Assembly (NCBI GenBank): GCA_040752415.1
Contig: JBFMGU010000270.1
Coordinates: 1 to 14,099 of the forward strand
Direction: 5' to 3'
Origin: Myxococcota bacterium
GTDB lineage: Bacteria > Myxococcota > JACRCW01
Length of the DNA stretch: 14,099 bases
The notes under the pieces were generated by a model that ran no database searches, had not been told where the DNA came from, and saw nothing but the letters and a program-made list of their open reading frames with translations. Of the stretch, positions 8,751 through 14,099 are shown piece after piece. Positions within the stretch are counted from its first letter, which is position 1; every line of letters begins with the position of its first letter. Position numbers and translations under genes: made by a program.

Positions 8751-11507
8751 TCAGGGCCTGCGACGTCGCACGAGCAGGGCGGCGAGCGCAAGCACCATGA
8801 CTCCCGTGGGCAGTCCGTGCTGGACCGCGGTGCTGCTGCAGCCGTTGGACGACCTTGTCGTCGTGGAAGCCTGGTCCTTGACCGGGAGCGTGCCCACCTC
8901 GCCGGTGCGCATGATGGGACGCTTCTTGGCGCGCTCACCCAACGTGGAGAGGGCCACGTGACCGGCCTGGTCGCGCGCCTCCACCTCGATGAACGCGTCA
9001 GCCGCGACGTCATCCAGGTCCACGCTGCGCTCCGTCTCGCCGTCGACGTCGATCCACGCGATGTCATTCACGCGGTAGCGGACGTGGATGTCCTCGGGCT
9101 CGGCCACGCGGTCCCAGACGATGATGCGCAGCGTGTCGTCGGTGCGGGAGACCTGGAGGCGGGGGGCTTCGGCGTCGCTGAGCACGGGGATGATGACCGG
9201 CGTCTCGTCGAGCGTGCCTGGCGCGTCCACCACGCGGCTGCGCACCTGGATGGTGTGGGCGCCCTGGAGGTTCAGCTCCACGTCGGAAACCACGAGCTCG
9301 GTGCCCTGGCGGTACGGGTGCCACAGGCCGTTGTCCACGCGGTAGCTGTGCTCCACCGGCGTGTTGCCGGGCGCCGCGCTGTCGACGCGCAGGATGGCCT
9401 TGATGCGCTTGCGCGCCGCGCCGTTGCTGACGCTCATCTCCGCCGGCGTGGGAATCTCCATGCGCTCCAGCGACGCCACCGTCTGCACCCGCAGCGTGCT
9501 GGCGTTGGCGGCTGCCGCGTCGAAGGCGAGGTCCGCGAACACGCCGAGGAACTCGTAGCGGGTGTGACCGAACGCGGTGGTGCCAAACCCGTTCTCCATG
9601 CCCTTGAAGCGCACGCGCTGCAGCTCGAAGCCACGCATGCTGGGCAGGTCAAAGGTCTGGTCCAGGTCCGGGGCGAACTGCGGGAGGAACGCGGCCAACA
9701 GCTCCGGCACCGCCTGCGCAATCTCCTCCTCGGTCTGGTTGAGGGCGTCCGCGTTGCGCGCGCGCACCTCACGCAGCCAGGTGTCGACGGGATTGGCGAT
9801 GACGTGCACCTGGCCCTGCCCGTTGATCTCCAGGCCCAGCCCCACGGCGAGGTCGACGTTGAGGGTGACCAGCCGGACGTAGCGATCCTCGACGAGGACG
9901 TAGATGTTGATGTCCAGGTTGGGCACCGAGAGCGTCAGCAGCGGCTGGTCCAGGATGGTGCGCGTGGGGTCGTCGGGGTCGGGCGCGGTGGTGCCCAGGC
10001 CAATCTGCGCTTCCGGTGGCTCGCGCGGACGCAGCTCCATGATGGCGGGGCGCGGCGCGGGATTGGGCTCGTTGTAGAGCGCGGCCATGGCGTCGCCCTC
10101 GCCCAGCAGCAGTCCCACGATGCCGCTGTTGATGAGTCCCACGCGGTAGCTGCTGATCTCCTGGCAGAGCAGGCCGGCGCTGTAGGCCTCACCGAGCATC
10201 TCGCCGAGGAGCGCGTCGTGCGCGGCCATGCCCACCATGTACGTGCTGGCGGAGCCGCCGTTGGCGGGGGCCACGGTGGCGGGGAAATCAAAGCTGGAGA
10301 CGTTGATGGGGCCGCCGTTGCGCGGGGGAACGCACGGGTTGTCGTCGGCGTTGGCGCCGCCCACCAGACCCACGTTGAGCCCGTTGTTGCTGAAGTGCGC
10401 CGCGTTGGCGCCACCCTCACGCGTGCCACCTGCAAAGACGCTGAACTGCACGTCACCGTTGCCGGCGAGGAAGCTGGGCAGGTTGGCAGCGAGGTCCACC
10501 TGTCCCTCGACGCCGAGGAGGCCGGGGATGGGCGCCTCGTTCCCGTCGGTGAAATGGCACTTGCCGTCGGTGTAGCAGAGGCTCTCCCACACGCCGGGCT
10601 TGGCGGGGCACTGGTAGCCGGACGCGTAGGGCGTGCAGGCCTGCGTGCGCACGGGGTCCAGCGCCTCATTGAGGGCGTCCTTGAGCGTGGTGCCCAGGTC
10701 CCCCGCGAAGCTGCCGACGATCCAGTCCTTCACGAACCCGATGTCGGCGATGTCGCAGGAGAAGCCGCCGTCGATGGTGATGTCATCCCCGCTGAAGGGC
10801 ACGTCGACGCTGGTGACCTCGAAGGTGGCGCGGTCCGTGCGCGGCTCCCGCCCGACGGTGAGCTTGCCGGTGACGGTGCGGTTCTCGATGTGCGGGTACA
10901 CCGTGCAATTGGTCTCGAAGTACCACCACGGGTCGTAGCGGATCTTGATGCCGTTGGGATCCGGGGGAGAGCTCAGGTCCACGACGACACGGATGTCCAT
11001 GGTGCTGGCCGTGGCGGGGACGAGCTGGGTGGTCTTCAGCGTGGCGTAGACGATGCAGTTCCAGTAGTTGGCGCCAATCTCCTCGGTGCAGATGTCGGTG
11101 TCCTCCCCGTCGGAGGGCGGGATGCGGAAGCCCAGCTTGGGGTCCGCGTTGGGCGCGTTGTGACAGACCTTGGGGTTGTCCAGGTTGCACGCGGGATTGG
11201 CGGCGGGGCAGCTGTCGCAGGTCTCACCGTCGGGGCAGCGGCAGGTCTGGCCGGAGGCGCAGGGCATGCCGGTGGCGCCGTCGCAGGCGGTCTGCATGAA
11301 CGCGCTGACGACGGTGGGAAGCTTCTGGCCAATGAAGCTGAAGCCCTCCGGCGTGATGCGCGCCTGCACGAGCTGGTCGGTCCGTTTGTCCTCGGGGAAG
11401 GGCCCGGTGAGGGGCTCAACGCAGGAGCAGGAAGTGGCACCGCAACGGGCCAGCAGGATGGCAGCAACGGCAGCCTGCCAGGCACGACGGTGGAGGGCAC
11501 GAACCAT
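8751..11507 (-). CDS. Large Cys-rich surface lipoprotein with MYXO-CTERM-like sorting tail; possible BPI/LBP-like fold plus Ig-like domains
   Basis: GGAGG before ATG 11507. Signal-like MVRALHRRAWQAAVAAILLARC-GATSCSC. C-terminus SSNGCSS...GVMVLALAALLVRRRRP (GC motif, TM helix, Arg cluster). Beta-rich C-terminal segments HSYRVDNG.W, GAHTIQVRSR, IEVEARDQAG. Confidence 0.85.
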   Translation of the reverse strand: MVRALHRRAWQAAVAAILLARCGATSCSCVEPLTGPFPEDKRTDQLVQARITPEGFSFIGQKLPTVVSAFMQTACDGATGMPCASGQTCRCPDGETCDSCPAANPACNLDNPKVCHNAPNADPKLGFRIPPSDGEDTDICTEEIGANYWNCIVYATLKTTQLVPATASTMDIRVVVDLSSPPDPNGIKIRYDPWWYFETNCTVYPHIENRTVTGKLTVGREPRTDRATFEVTSVDVPFSGDDITIDGGFSCDIADIGFVKDWIVGSFAGDLGTTLKDALNEALDPVRTQACTPYASGYQCPAKPGVWESLCYTDGKCHFTDGNEAPIPGLLGVEGQVDLAANLPSFLAGNGDVQFSVFAGGTREGGANAAHFSNNGLNVGLVGGANADDNPCVPPRNGGPINVSSFDFPATVAPANGGSASTYMVGMAAHDALLGEMLGEAYSAGLLCQEISSYRVGLINSGIVGLLLGEGDAMAALYNEPNPAPRPAIMELRPREPPEAQIGLGTTAPDPDDPTRTILDQPLLTLSVPNLDINIYVLVEDRYVRLVTLNVDLAVGLGLEINGQGQVHVIANPVDTWLREVRARNADALNQTEEEIAQAVPELLAAFLPQFAPDLDQTFDLPSMRGFELQRVRFKGMENGFGTTAFGHTRYEFLGVFADLAFDAAAANASTLRVQTVASLERMEIPTPAEMSVSNGAARKRIKAILRVDSAAPGNTPVEHSYRVDNGLWHPYRQGTELVVSDVELNLQGAHTIQVRSRVVDAPGTLDETPVIIPVLSDAEAPRLQVSRTDDTLRIIVWDRVAEPEDIHVRYRVNDIAWIDVDGETERSVDLDDVAADAFIEVEARDQAGHVALSTLGERAKKRPIMRTGEVGTLPVKDQASTTTRSSNGCSSTAVQHGLPTGVMVLALAALLVRRRRP

Positions 11508-11636
11508 GGGGCCTCCCAAGACGGGGACCCACGGATCTTTAGCCGCCCCCGGGCGCCAAGGCCATGGCTGGGCGACGGATGGAGGGGACGGGACAACCGA
11601 GTGGAGCGCGGGAGATCCGGGGGTACGCGCCGCGGT

Positions 11637-11927
11637 TCACGGGCGGCTGGGAGCCACCGCTTGACGACGGGCGAAGGGCAGACCCAGCCCGGCAATGATG
11701 CCCCACACCGTGCCAAACACCAGCGCGATGACCAGGGCGTGCCAGTCGGTCACCTCGACGAGGGCACCGCGGATCAGCGCGGCCACCGTGCCCGCCGTGG
11801 CGTAGGTGCACAGCGACGGGATGCGCAGCGTGGAGCGCTCCGCCAGCCGACGGCCCATCCGCACCGTGACGTGGCGCGCGAGCAACCCCGCCGCGAGCAT
11901 GACCGTGAGCTTGATGACCCAATCCAT
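11637..11927 (-). CDS. Small hypothetical membrane protein (~3 TM)
   Basis: 96 aa, ATG preceded by GAGG, three hydrophobic stretches, fills the gap in the same orientation as its neighbours. Confidence 0.7.
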   Translation of the reverse strand: MDWVIKLTVMLAAGLLARHVTVRMGRRLAERSTLRIPSLCTYATAGTVAALIRGALVEVTDWHALVIALVFGTVWGIIAGLGLPFARRQAVAPSRP

Positions 11928-11977
11928 GGGCCTCGAGTTACCCCAACGCCGCGGAGGTTGCCATCACGGAACGCGGG

Positions 11978-12226
11978 TCAGCGGCGTCCGCCGTGATAGC
12001 CCACCAGGAAGGCCAGCGCGCTCCAGAGCAGCGTCCCGACGTAGAGGCCCGCCTTGTCGCGCCAGGCGGTGTGGGAGAACACGTCGCTGAGCGTGGCCCA
12101 GAGGCTGCGGATGGCGTCGAGGTGGAAGTAGGCGGGCAGGGTGAGCCCGACGAGGATCAGCGCCCAGAGCGCCAGGACGAACGCCGCGCCACGCAGGAGG
12201 CGTCGCCACGAGGGAAGAAGCTTCAT
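11978..12226 (-). CDS. Small hypothetical membrane protein (2 TM), coupled to larE
   Basis: 82 aa, basic N-terminus then two hydrophobic segments. Start overlaps the larE stop (ATGA at 12226-12223). Confidence 0.75.
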   Translation of the reverse strand: MKLLPSWRRLLRGAAFVLALWALILVGLTLPAYFHLDAIRSLWATLSDVFSHTAWRDKAGLYVGTLLWSALAFLVGYHGGRR

Positions 12227-13080
12227 CCACCCAGCACGGTGAGTCGCGGACGGCCCGAGGCGCGGTTGGCACCGCCCTGACGGTAGCCATCCAGGTCCAC
12301 CGTCACCTGTGTGAAACCCGCCTCGCGCACGCCGGCCACCGCCGCTTCACGCACCTTCTCGTCGAGCAGGCGCGGCAGCTCGTCGACGGCAACCTCGATG
12401 CGCGCGAGGTCACCGTGGTAGCGCACGCGCACCTGCACGAAACCGAGCTGTCGCAGCGCGAATTCCGCGCGGCCCACCTGGCCCAGCTTCTCCGCCGTGA
12501 TGGCGGTGCCGTGTGGGAAGCGGCTGGAGAGGCACGCCAGCGCGGGTTTGTGCGCGGAGGGAAGCCCGTACAGCTCGGCCACGGCGCGCACCAACGGCTT
12601 GCTGAGCCCGGCGGTGATGAGCGGCGCCTGGATGCCACGTTCACGCGCGGCGGTGTGGCCGGGACGGTCGTCGCCGAGGTCGTCGAGATTGGCGCCGTAG
12701 GCAACGTGCTTCAGTCCACGACGGGCCTTGAACGCATCACACGCGTCGAACAGTGCGCTCTTGCAGAAGTAGCAGCGGTTGGTGGGATTGGCGGCGTAGC
12801 GCGGGTCCTCCACCTCGTGCGTGTCGACGAGAACGAGCTCCGCGCCGATGCGCCGCGCACCCTCGCGTGCATCGTCGTATTCCCACTGCGGGTAGCTGGG
12901 GGAGATGGCCAACAGCCCCACGGCGCGCGGCCCCAGGGCCCGGTGCGCGGCCGCGAGCAGCACCGCGCTGTCGACGCCACCGGAGTACGCCACCACCGCG
13001 GATTCCAACGCCGCGCACGCCTCCTCCAGGCGCTGTGCGGCCTCCCGGGCGTCCATTCCACGCAATGCCGTGCTGGTCAT
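12223..13080 (-). CDS. larE: LarE-family ATP-dependent sulfur transferase (PP-loop), CxxC...C type
   Basis: PP-loop AYSGGVDS, YAANPTNRCYFCK, GANLDDLGDDRPG..AA.E, KPALACLSSRFP.G, AE..LRQLGF.QVRVRYHG..ARIE, GF..VTVDLDGYRQG. Confidence 0.95.
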   Translation of the reverse strand: MTSTALRGMDAREAAQRLEEACAALESAVVAYSGGVDSAVLLAAAHRALGPRAVGLLAISPSYPQWEYDDAREGARRIGAELVLVDTHEVEDPRYAANPTNRCYFCKSALFDACDAFKARRGLKHVAYGANLDDLGDDRPGHTAARERGIQAPLITAGLSKPLVRAVAELYGLPSAHKPALACLSSRFPHGTAITAEKLGQVGRAEFALRQLGFVQVRVRYHGDLARIEVAVDELPRLLDEKVREAAVAGVREAGFTQVTVDLDGYRQGGANRASGRPRLTVLGG

Positions 13081-13571
13081 GGCTGCTCCACCTTCGTCGT
13101 CGGAAGTTCCACCTTGTGCGGGTGGAAGCTGCCCGCGTCATAACGGAACAGGTTGGCCTCCACCGGCTTGCCGTCGCGCGTCCCGACCACGAGGTAGTCC
13201 ACGCCGGGGAAACGGGGTGCGCCGTCCCAGAGCGCCTGCGCCACGTCCTCGTCGCTGAAGTAGGCGCCCACGTCGATGTGCGAGTGGTAGATGACCCGCT
13301 CCACCTGCCCCTGCTCCTTTGCCTTCTCGAGGAGACGGAGGTGCTGCATGTCATTGAAGCGGTACGCGGTGCGGGAGGTGCGGGGGAACTGCACGGGGTC
13401 CAGCTGGTGGTAGCGGTCCTGCACGTTGTCCATGCGCTCGGTGGCCACCGCCACGTCGGGAGCGTCGGCTTGGGCGAGGAGGATGCCGCACACTTCCGAG
13501 GGATAACCCTCGATGACGTGCTGGAGCACACGTGCGAGCACCGGTTCAGGAATGCGGAAGACCTGCGACAT
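13077..13571 (-). CDS. JAMM/MPN+ (Mov34, M67 family) zinc metallopeptidase, Mec-like
   Basis: YPSEVCGILL and YHSHIDVGAYFSDED match the JAMM motif E...HxH-x7-S-x2-D. GAGGG before ATG 13571. Stop overlaps the larE start (ATGA at 13080-13077). Confidence 0.93.
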   Translation of the reverse strand: MSQVFRIPEPVLARVLQHVIEGYPSEVCGILLAQADAPDVAVATERMDNVQDRYHQLDPVQFPRTSRTAYRFNDMQHLRLLEKAKEQGQVERVIYHSHIDVGAYFSDEDVAQALWDGAPRFPGVDYLVVGTRDGKPVEANLFRYDAGSFHPHKVELPTTKVEQP

Positions 13572-13679
13572 GGGCAACCCTCGGGGAAGGCCCTCTTAGC
13601 GCAACGCCAGGGCGAGCGCAGCCCGTGATGACCCGCATGCAGCGGTAGCCGCGTGACGACGTGGGGACCCCCGCGCGTG

Positions 13680-14099
13680 CTAGAGGCAGCTGCCCACCAT
13701 GCCAAAGGAGACGGTGCGCACGCCGCTGTTGATGGCGGACGCCACGTCGGAGTTCATGAGGCCCAGGCTGTTGAGCATCTTGCCCGCCACCGGTGCGACG
13801 AGCAACGTGGTGACCAGGAACATCCCCAGCCCCACGCCGAAGATTGCCGCGCCGATGACCATGGTGATGGAACCCGTGGTGACCAGCCCCGGCGCGCCGA
13901 CCCACTGGACGAATCCCCAGATCCCGACGGCAAACCCCACCAGCATCACCACGGGTGACAGCACGATGGGGATTCCGACGACGCCCGCGGTCCCCAGCGT
14001 GCATCCCGCGGACAACGCCTTGCGGCCGGCACCGGGCTCATTCGACGTCGGGGTGACGTCCTCAGGCGGCGGGGACGGCGGGGGCACATAGGTCGGCGC
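13680..14099 (-). CDS. Hypothetical membrane protein with Pro-rich linker; 5' end outside the window
   Basis: Frame stays open to the window edge (APTYVPPPSPPPEDV...), followed by two long Gly-rich hydrophobic stretches. TAG stop at 13682-13680. Confidence 0.7.
   Translation of the reverse strand, partial: APTYVPPPSPPPEDVTPTSNEPGAGRKALSAGCTLGTAGVVGIPIVLSPVVMLVGFAVGIWGFVQWVGAPGLVTTGSITMVIGAAIFGVGLGMFLVTTLLVAPVAGKMLNSLGLMNSDVASAINSGVRTVSFGMVGSCL

Follow-up and report, generated by a model that had tools for sequence, protein, structure and literature searches.

The 14,099-bp stretch analysed here (the window) is the entire contig C191 of an 11-Mb Myxococcota genome, which is assembled in 520 contigs and labelled G000. 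On its minus strand a gene for a JAMM zinc peptidase runs into larE, and the same pair of genes recurs in other Myxococcota and in Chloroflexota, in three genomes as a single open reading frame. These observations are pointing to JAMM and LarE as one functional module and to an undescribed route by which sulfur is fed into the nickel-pincer cofactor. We propose, with slightly less than even confidence, that a ubiquitin-like sulfur relay feeds LarE as TtuB feeds TtuA and that the JAMM protein is its carrier-handling subunit. The features on which this proposal is built are as follows.

13077..13571 (from ATG) or 13077..13577 (from TTG), minus strand: JAMM/MPN+ (Prok-JAB, PF14464) zinc peptidase gene
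13494-13496, minus strand: JAMM motif residue E28
13284-13286, minus strand: JAMM motif residue H98
13278-13280, minus strand: JAMM motif residue H100
13254-13256, minus strand: JAMM motif residue S108
13245-13247, minus strand: JAMM motif residue D111
13077..13080, minus strand: ATGA overlap of the JAMM stop codon TGA and the larE start codon ATG
12223..13080, minus strand: larE (TIGR00268), 285 amino acids, predicted tri-Cys [4Fe-4S] type
12967-12984, minus strand: LarE PP-loop SGGVDS, S33 to S38
12772-12774, minus strand: LarE C103
12763-12765, minus strand: LarE C106
12532-12534, minus strand: LarE C183

The TGA of the JAMM gene occupies 13077-13079 and the ATG of larE 13078-13080; the plus strand reads tcat at 13077-13080 and the minus strand ATGA. 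The overlap stood as the initial annotation had described it when the DNA was re-read at these positions, and it is a predicted translational coupling of JAMM and larE. The JAMM protein has 164 amino acids from the ATG at 13571, the start taken in the initial annotation, which has GAGGG upstream, or 166 from the TTG at 13577, from which its residues are numbered. It scores 47.5 bits against Prok-JAB (cut-off 25), is the only JAB match above the cut-off in the genome, and carries the motif E...HxH-x7-S-xx-D as E28, H98-S-H100, S108 and D111. G+C at third codon positions (GC3) is 0.88 in the gene. Its best NCBIfam match is the desampylase model NF041370, at 47.6 bits and under the cut-off of 130, and the sole solved sequence relative is PDB 2kcq, of the Mov34/MPN/PAD-1 family (E 1.4e-6). 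A word-indexed search for longer, fused relatives gave one match, a PAS-JAB-GGDEF protein.

LarE adenylates both carboxylates of pyridinium dicarboxylate mononucleotide (P2CMN) and exchanges oxygen for sulfur in the synthesis of the nickel-pincer nucleotide. The window protein scores 291.4 bits against the TIGR00268 equivalog (cut-off 150), is encoded by the single such gene in the genome and aligns end to end with LarE of L. plantarum (PDB 5udq/6b2o, E 1e-34). The LarE-like structure 8cnz was found at E 1e-11, with the CxxC and the third cysteine aligned. Cysteines C103, C106 and C183 are invariant in alignments of 14 and of 89 LarEs, although the pattern that picked the 80 GTDB-wide loci described below already contained CxxC and cysteine invariance there is biased. 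In LarE of T. maritima a CxxC...C motif (Cys92, Cys95, Cys172) binds a [4Fe-4S] cluster (Chatterjee et al., PMC9283937; this and the other papers are cited from parts of their text), and the window protein is of the same tri-Cys type, with cluster binding predicted. It also shares the SGGxDS PP-loop with T. maritima LarE and 8cnz, and the same reaction is expected. Residues S186, R218 and R220 align with Ser180, Arg212 and Arg214, which bind the substrate phosphate in the L. plantarum enzyme (PMC9283937); among the 89 LarEs R218 and R220 are invariant and S186 is at least 90% conserved, and R187 is conserved too in the window LarE.

The window, as first annotated, is free of larA, larB and larC, no open reading frame in it matching these families in Pfam and NCBIfam. 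The remainder of the cofactor pathway is encoded on other contigs: larB (290.9 bits) and larC (178.1 bits) are adjacent on C151, and two LarA homologues with Lar_N matches are on C497 and C203. Because the genome has one LarE, a larB-larC pair and two larA homologues, the window LarE most likely serves nickel-pincer synthesis. A sample of 61 Myxococcota genomes (G000 and 60 relatives) gave LarE in 42, never more than one per genome, LarB in 41 and LarC in 43. The LarE-bearing genomes have LarC in 42/42 and LarB in 41/42 (the exception is G050), and the 19 LarE-negative genomes have LarB in 0/19 and LarC in 1/19, a weak match in G040, which is 85% complete. The initial annotation had offered as an alternative that LarE thiolates another substrate than P2CMN, here taken as one in a pathway defined by JAMM and the carrier, and this appears very improbable. 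LarE-like enzymes have been used as anchors for finding other pincer cofactors (PMC13524815), and larE lies apart from larB and larC in all 16 sampled genomes with a JAMM-LarE pair. Against this stand the single-copy LarE and its co-occurrence with LarB and LarC, the equivalog score and the conserved phosphate-binding residues.

LarE as its own carrier, by means of a C-terminal GG, was considered and rejected: a GG end is present in 1/23 LarEs linked to JAMM or E1 clusters and in 3/99 others. LarE tails do have a hydrophobic motif, LVQLG or LPVVG/S. Some LarEs are fused to other domains. One (P0196, 702 amino acids) is joined to an EF-Tu/CysN-like GTPase, and further fusions (P0161, P0182, P0142, P0155, P0249, P0273) involve NUDIX, RNase H-like RVT_3 or N-formylglutamate amidohydrolase (FGase) domains, in addition to fusions with LarB and LarC, which were expected. 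The extra domains met in 28 scanned sequences out of the best 150 matches to the G025 fusion described below were LarB, LarC, NUDIX, RNase H-like, FGase, zinc ribbon and EF-Tu-like GTPase, and JAMM was not among them.

To follow the pairing, 15-16 kb were fetched around every LarE of the Myxococcota sample. A neighbour was counted at 35 bits or more, within 5 kb and on the same strand, with hidden Markov models built from the cluster proteins annotated by Pfam and NCBIfam; gene calls in the relatives are picks of open reading frames, corrected case by case. The window JAMM as query found matches in 15/61 genomes and the Pfam JAB model in 39/61. Of the 42 LarE loci, 16 carry a JAMM gene in the same orientation as larE and no more than 5 kb upstream of it, and 18 have JAMM or E1 beside larE, counts that overstate the number of events as kin are not independent. 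JAMM is usually part of a cluster of E1 (ThiF with or without TusA), ThiF', CysO-like carrier and APS kinase or CysM. The other loci have E1 and APS kinase without JAMM (2), cysteine synthase only (6, all of family f4), larB and/or larC (8) or none of these (10). By family, JAMM-LarE pairs are found in 2/2 loci of f1, 8/8 of f6, 4/4 of f11, 1/3 of f15 and 1/1 of f22, and the two further f15 loci are those with E1 and APS kinase only. Among the 16 JAMM-LarE rows an E1 is also present in 11 and a carrier in 6; the window itself has neither. The main arrangements are as follows.

G048, G012: ThiF-carrier-ThiF'-JAMM-APS kinase-LarE
G035, and Cystobacter fuscus (L117): carrier-JAMM-APS kinase-LarE
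G021: ThiF-ThiF'-JAMM-APS kinase-LarE
Genus g8: ThiF::TusA-ThiF'-JAMM-LarE
G052: PALP-ThiF-carrier-ThiF'-CysM-JAMM::PUA_2-LarE
G001 (family of the window genome): JAMM, 266-amino-acid membrane open reading frame, LarE, MYXO-CTERM protein

The JAMM of family f6 carries a fused tail of about 270 amino acids, at whose start is a PUA-like domain, the N-terminal one of ATP sulfurylase (L030 8251-9525, plus strand; L032 8140-9498, plus strand; L033 7275-8534, minus strand). In other families the place of this tail, between JAMM and larE, is taken by a true APS kinase gene. A separate arrangement is a cysteine synthase gene directly 5' of larE, often overlapping it, in f4 (L049 4164-5938, minus strand; L050, L052, L053, L058, L068) and in Geobacteraceae, Binatia, Brocadiaceae and a cyanobacterium (L121, L129, L130, L131, L132). 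The one example scanned, from L049, is a CysK (453.5 bits, cut-off 351), and cysteine synthase seems to be another partner supplying LarE with sulfur, distinct from the JAMM clusters.

The pairing is also present in a second phylum. Of 121 Chloroflexota genomes, 64 have LarE and 104 Prok-JAB; G102 is counted in these totals as a genome without an adjacent pair. In 13 of the 64 LarE genomes 67-384 bp separate the end of a JAB match from the LarE match that follows it on the same strand, and two more pairs with gaps of 1.1 and 2.7 kb bring the count to 15/64 at 3 kb or less. JAMM is always upstream and on the same strand, in genomes of 1.5-7 Mb with 1-3 JAB genes each, and in 11 of the 13 genomes the paired JAB is the only JAB match at E<=1e-5. 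Pfam scans of 14 loci gave rows of Rrf2-JAMM-LarE, often abutting, beside a divergent GroEL; Rrf2 was found in G087, G099 and G162, and the JAMM positions in G099 and G162 come from Prok-JAB genome-search matches and not from the locus scan. In G144 the row is Rrf2-ThiF-JAMM-...-LarE, its JAMM open reading frame having no Pfam match at 1e-5 and being placed by the Prok-JAB genome search, and in G150 it is Rrf2-JAMM-PALP-110 amino acids-MnmA-LarE.

Wider relatives were taken from GTDB as the best 80 LarE loci of at least 560 confirmed among the 600 pattern matches listed. Pfam confirmed in this set a Chloroflexota locus with 3 bp between the JAMM stop and larE (L141), a ThiF gene overlapping larE (L114) and, in Desulfitobacterium, TusA-larE with a convergent ThiF (L099). 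JAMM and LarE share one open frame in three genomes: G025/L043 (Myxococcota), G084/L157 (457 amino acids) and G141/L161 (409 amino acids). The check proposed with the initial annotation, a count of adjacency across genomes, has therefore shown that the arrangement is not unique to one genome. Chance adjacency without a functional link is hardly credible, because the two genes have the same order and strand in both phyla, and start-stop overlaps and fusions are seen as well.

The Rrf2-family regulator that heads the Chloroflexota JAMM-larE genes is of IscR/CymR type (L155 4993-6756, minus strand; L158, L163, L167, L168), and the divergent GroEL is present in 11/14 scanned loci. MnmA, the tRNA 2-thiouridine synthase, is encoded immediately 5' of larE in a Myxococcota metagenome-assembled genome and in a Chloroflexota genome (L144 5904-8696, plus strand, MnmA-LarE-NadA with sulfite reductase and two ThiF genes upstream; L168 6887-8884, plus strand).

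In a FastTree phylogeny of 122 LarEs, which gives local supports only, a single myxobacterial clade, with 20 rows, takes in 18 of the 23 cluster-linked LarEs. The LarEs of the window and of G001 are outside this clade, with those of Chloroflexota and Planctomycetota (support 98), and the label of an E1 or JAMM neighbour changes at least 5-6 times on the tree. The window JAMM and the Chloroflexota L141 JAMM are 26% identical. Given these label changes, the LarE placement and the low JAMM identity, the pairing arose or was kept several times, and as judged from the trees it is not one inherited accident.

The initial annotation had noted that no carrier or E1 gene is visible beside the pair. That is true at the locus, because in this genome the cluster is split over contigs; both genes are encoded elsewhere. 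A CysO-like carrier ending in AIAGG (C57:21754-22029) is followed by cysM on C57 (cysO-cysM, 21754-22962), a PALP-ThiF pair like the one that opens the G052 row is on C489, and a 389-amino-acid ThiF-family protein on C13 is a MoeZ-like candidate by its length only. Ordinary CysH-APS kinase-sulfite reductase genes are on C502. A GG-ended carrier and an E1 are accordingly present in the genome. Carriers end in GG in the window genome, G039, G035, G048, G012 and C. fuscus and in GG followed by 1-7 residues in G052, G032, L115 and L134; an extension of this kind would need JAMM to expose the GG end. With the CysO profile (A3, E<=1e-6) carriers were found in 18/61 genomes. Orthologues of the window genome's CysM (at least 54% identity) are found only in G010, G006, G039 and G052, where each adjoins JAMM. 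A CysO-type CysM at this identity is present in 3 of the 16 JAMM-LarE genomes (G000, G052, G039) and absent from the other 13, and in 9/16, including G007, G012, G016, G025, G035, G046, G048 and G057, no CysM match whatsoever was obtained at E<=1e-50. Because most clusters are without CysM, LarE is the sole sulfur-using enzyme in most rows. Its constant companions are JAMM and usually an E1, and a dedicated carrier is not always present.

Most myxobacterial clusters also have, between the carrier or E1 and JAMM and beside a full ThiF, a short degenerate ThiF paralogue (ThiF') of 110-230 amino acids that keeps CxxC pairs (among others L039 8547-9185, minus strand; L038 7557-8246, plus strand; L055 5201-5890; L059 9339-10031). 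The arrangement suggests that ThiF and ThiF' form a heterodimeric bacterial E1. ThiF' as a hidden fused carrier was rejected: it has no GG end, and with its CxxC pairs it resembles a shortened E1 paralogue. A further ThiS-like protein ending in GG, of 100 amino acids, is encoded at C139:215-1696 (plus strand), followed by an apparent cytoplasmic propeller of 390 amino acids.

We infer the flow of sulfur, and with it the substrate of JAMM, from these genes in the following way. An E1, for which the PALP-linked ThiF of C489 and the MoeZ-like protein of C13 are candidates, would adenylate the carrier, the carrier would be converted to its thiocarboxylate, and its sulfur would be passed to the open iron of the LarE cluster, as from TtuB to TtuA. 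JAMM would keep the carrier usable by trimming C-terminal extras where there are any and by freeing it from adducts or from conjugates with LarE or E1. The initial idea that LarE draws sulfur from a JAMM-handled carrier thus stands as far as the pairing is conserved and E1, carrier and CysM genes exist; the sulfur flow itself keeps the character of a proposal. The model is TtuA of Thermus thermophilus, like LarE a PP-loop ATP pyrophosphatase with a three-cysteine [4Fe-4S] cluster, which takes its sulfur from the thiocarboxylate of the GG-ended, ubiquitin-like TtuB made by an E1, in the TtuA/TtuB/TtuC system (PMC9283937, PMC3980101). JAMM affects that pathway too: Thermus deleted for a JAMM forms aberrant conjugates of TtuB with TtuA and TtuC, and its thiouridine falls by about 50% (PMC3980101). 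The systems differ in that the LarE substrate is a pyridinium dicarboxylate mononucleotide and not tRNA, and in that here JAMM is coupled or fused to the insertase, the carrier gene is often missing and carrier use is put forward by analogy.

CysM makes a CysO-cysteine adduct, and Mec is the hydrolase that releases the cysteine again. As the chief alternative to the relay, the window JAMM could be Mec only, LarE obtaining its sulfur from free cysteine through a desulfurase and the genes lying together as members of a sulfur or cysteine regulon and for a local benefit of cysteine to LarE; we consider this possible but rather unlikely. The window JAMM, as the only clear JAB gene, is, by gene content, the only candidate Mec for the cysO-cysM pair, and it is not encoded with that pair, which is on C57, JAMM being on C191. 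Its nearest relatives in G010, G006, G052 and G039 adjoin CysM, a Mec-type role is plausible for it, and rows of carrier-CysM-JAMM-...-LarE are found in G052 and G039. The cysK genes directly 5' of larE, the Rrf2 regulator in Chloroflexota and the use of IscS and cysteine by T. maritima LarE (PMC9283937) are in line with it as well. But JAMM is kept in the 13 of 16 JAMM-LarE genomes without a CysO-type CysM and in the 8 of 16 without a CysO-like carrier, three JAMM::LarE fusions are hard to square with cysteine release alone, and the sulfur demand of a cofactor is presumably so tiny that co-regulation of supply would be weak ground for translational coupling.

A number of points weigh against a carrier relay to LarE. 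Chemically, the transfer of sulfur from a thiocarboxylate to a cluster needs no peptidase, and a plain Mec role would suffice for the window JAMM, given cysO-cysM in the genome. In the JAMM tree (23 rows, quick IQ-TREE) the window JAMM groups with the CysM-linked JAMMs of G010, G006, G052, G032 and G039, at a weak SH-like approximate likelihood ratio (SH-aLRT) support of 84. T. maritima LarE is catalytic with IscS and cysteine, so that a carrier is not required in principle; a [4Fe-5S] state loaded by IscS is proposed for it, and the desulfurase genes are distant from larE (PMC9283937). The cysK-larE pairs (6/42 Myxococcota and 5/80 GTDB-wide loci) fit a simple link to cysteine supply. JAMM stands beside only 3 of the best 80 GTDB-wide LarE loci and E1 alone beside 2 more, with cysteine synthase at 5, larB/C at 15 and none at 55, counts for which the neighbour models, being built from myxobacterial proteins, may miss distant JAMMs and carriers. 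No JAMM::LarE fusion was found in the best 150 of 9683 matches to the G025 fusion, all of which matched the LarE part alone in a HMMER search of 1.84 billion representatives. With profile A3 at E<=1e-6, 8 of the 16 JAMM-LarE genomes gave no CysO-like carrier (G001, G007, G016, G025, G046, G057, G021, G054); in five of these eight the Pfam ThiS model finds only 1-3 generic ThiS/MoaD genes, distant from the cluster. Five Chloroflexota genomes likewise have 4-7 ThiS-family genes each, all distant from JAMM-larE. The missing carriers and CysM cut both ways: they argue against a pure Mec role, yet they weaken the model of a dedicated carrier.

Since JAMM is kept beside LarE, or fused to it, even without a dedicated carrier or CysM, it can be read as an integral subunit of LarE that would dock the Gly-Gly tail of the carrier. 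LarE would then be the first non-tRNA client of an Fe-S ubiquitin-like relay, and JAMM may hydrolyse the thiocarboxylate so that sulfide goes onto the open iron, or strip LarE conjugates, the relay being charged in myxobacteria by the apparent heterodimeric E1 (ThiF::TusA and ThiF'). This more specific form of the proposal is speculative and we hold it as doubtful. It is improbable, and more so, that JAMM acts on LarE itself and not in sulfur supply, by stripping carriers conjugated to LarE lysines, a self-regulation like that proposed for TtuA/TtuB, or by hydrolysing another amide-type adduct that arises in cofactor synthesis. The constant partners of LarE, JAMM and often E1 but not a dedicated carrier, would fit this, as would the fusions and the tight coupling, the precedent of the Thermus JAMM mutant (PMC3980101) and the weak best match of JAMM to a desampylase. 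However, no conserved lysine or Gly-Gly feature was identified in LarE, the GG end of the window LarE is not conserved (1/23 cluster-linked LarEs, 3/99 others), and conjugation in Myxococcota and Chloroflexota is undocumented in the parts of the literature covered.

The carrier relay proposed for LarE can also be set beside known JAMM systems. In HcyS/HcyD/HcyF/MetY of Wolinella succinogenes and in QbsCDE/Pdt there are a carrier, an E1 and a JAMM which trims the residues after GG, and the final Qbs and Pdt products are aromatic thiocarboxylic acids, chemically near the LarE product. Their acceptor enzymes are others (MetY; AMP-ligases), and we know of no such system with LarE. PDTC and quinolobactin are named in a comment to Table 1 of PMC1779556. 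The same paper, by Iyer, Burroughs and Aravind (2006), describes ThiS/JAB/E1 operons with SirA, APS kinase or cysteine synthase; its operon classes 4b-4e and Mec+/CysO/CysM/MoeZ of Mycobacterium tuberculosis share with the clusters described here the JAMM type, a CysO-like carrier, an E1 with rhodanese or TusA/SirA, cysteine synthase and APS kinase. They differ in that the consulted parts of PMC1779556 name no PP-loop enzyme or LarE and in that most LarE-linked clusters are without CysM. T. maritima LarE differs in its donor, IscS with L-cysteine in vitro, and no JAMM, E1 or carrier context is given for it in the text of PMC9283937 used. We found no paper that links LarE with ThiS, CysO, MoaD, E1 or JAMM, supplements and subscription papers being outside the scope, and no link of LarE to a carrier, E1 or JAMM in the parts covered of PMC9283937, PMC11796402, PMC13524815, PMC13325395, PMC8305020 and PMC1779556.

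The window has a G+C of 70%, and G+C by codon position backs the whole minus-strand row, from a membrane open reading frame through a spacer, JAMM and larE to open reading frames of 82, 96 and 922 amino acids. The members of this row around the pair are listed below; the other genes of the window encode Ser/Thr kinases and a sigma-54 activator, according to Pfam and NCBIfam, which also recognise the MYXO-CTERM protein.

13680..14099, minus strand: 3' part of a glycine-rich membrane-protein open reading frame running off the contig end; no Pfam or NCBIfam family
13578..13679, minus strand: 102-bp spacer 5' of the JAMM gene, the presumed promoter region
12223..12226, minus strand: second ATGA overlap, larE stop and start of the 82-amino-acid open reading frame
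11978..12226, minus strand: 82-amino-acid open reading frame, two predicted hydrophobic segments, GC3 0.93
11637..11927, minus strand: 96-amino-acid hydrophobic open reading frame, GC3 0.90; uncertain gene
8751..11519, minus strand: 922-amino-acid MYXO-CTERM protein downstream of the larE row (TIGR03901, 22.2 bits)

At the second overlap, which the initial annotation does not mention, the larE stop (12223-12225) and the ATG at 12224-12226 again form ATGA, and the 82-amino-acid product is probably a small, lineage-specific membrane protein coupled to larE. Neither this nor the 96-amino-acid open reading frame has a Pfam family or a tblastn homologue in the 168 fetched loci, and the former has no tblastn match elsewhere in its own genome. 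A scan of 11400-14099 for consensus types only gave 0 sigma-70-like promoters and 0 terminator-like sites. Four genomes, belonging to two families, encode a large MYXO-CTERM protein directly 3' of the larE row; by tblastn the window protein has 49% identity to the gene after larE in G001 (L037 10205-12967) and 25-26% to those in G057 (L045 3332-6022) and G039 (L033 1768-4326). The membrane open reading frame upstream in the window was considered as the counterpart of the one between JAMM and larE in G001 and rejected, the two being unrelated (BLASTP E 2.5).

For the widespread [4Fe-4S] LarEs the only sulfur donor shown is E. coli IscS with cysteine, in vitro. The JAMM-LarE module makes the question of the physiological donor directly testable, as it includes fusions, neighbours such as E1, TusA and carriers, and a cultured host, Cystobacter fuscus (L117). 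If the relay is true, ubiquitin-like sulfur transfer, which serves tRNA, thiamin, molybdopterin and amino acids, would also reach an organometallic nickel cofactor, and JAMM peptidases would gain a role tied to a specific sulfur insertase.

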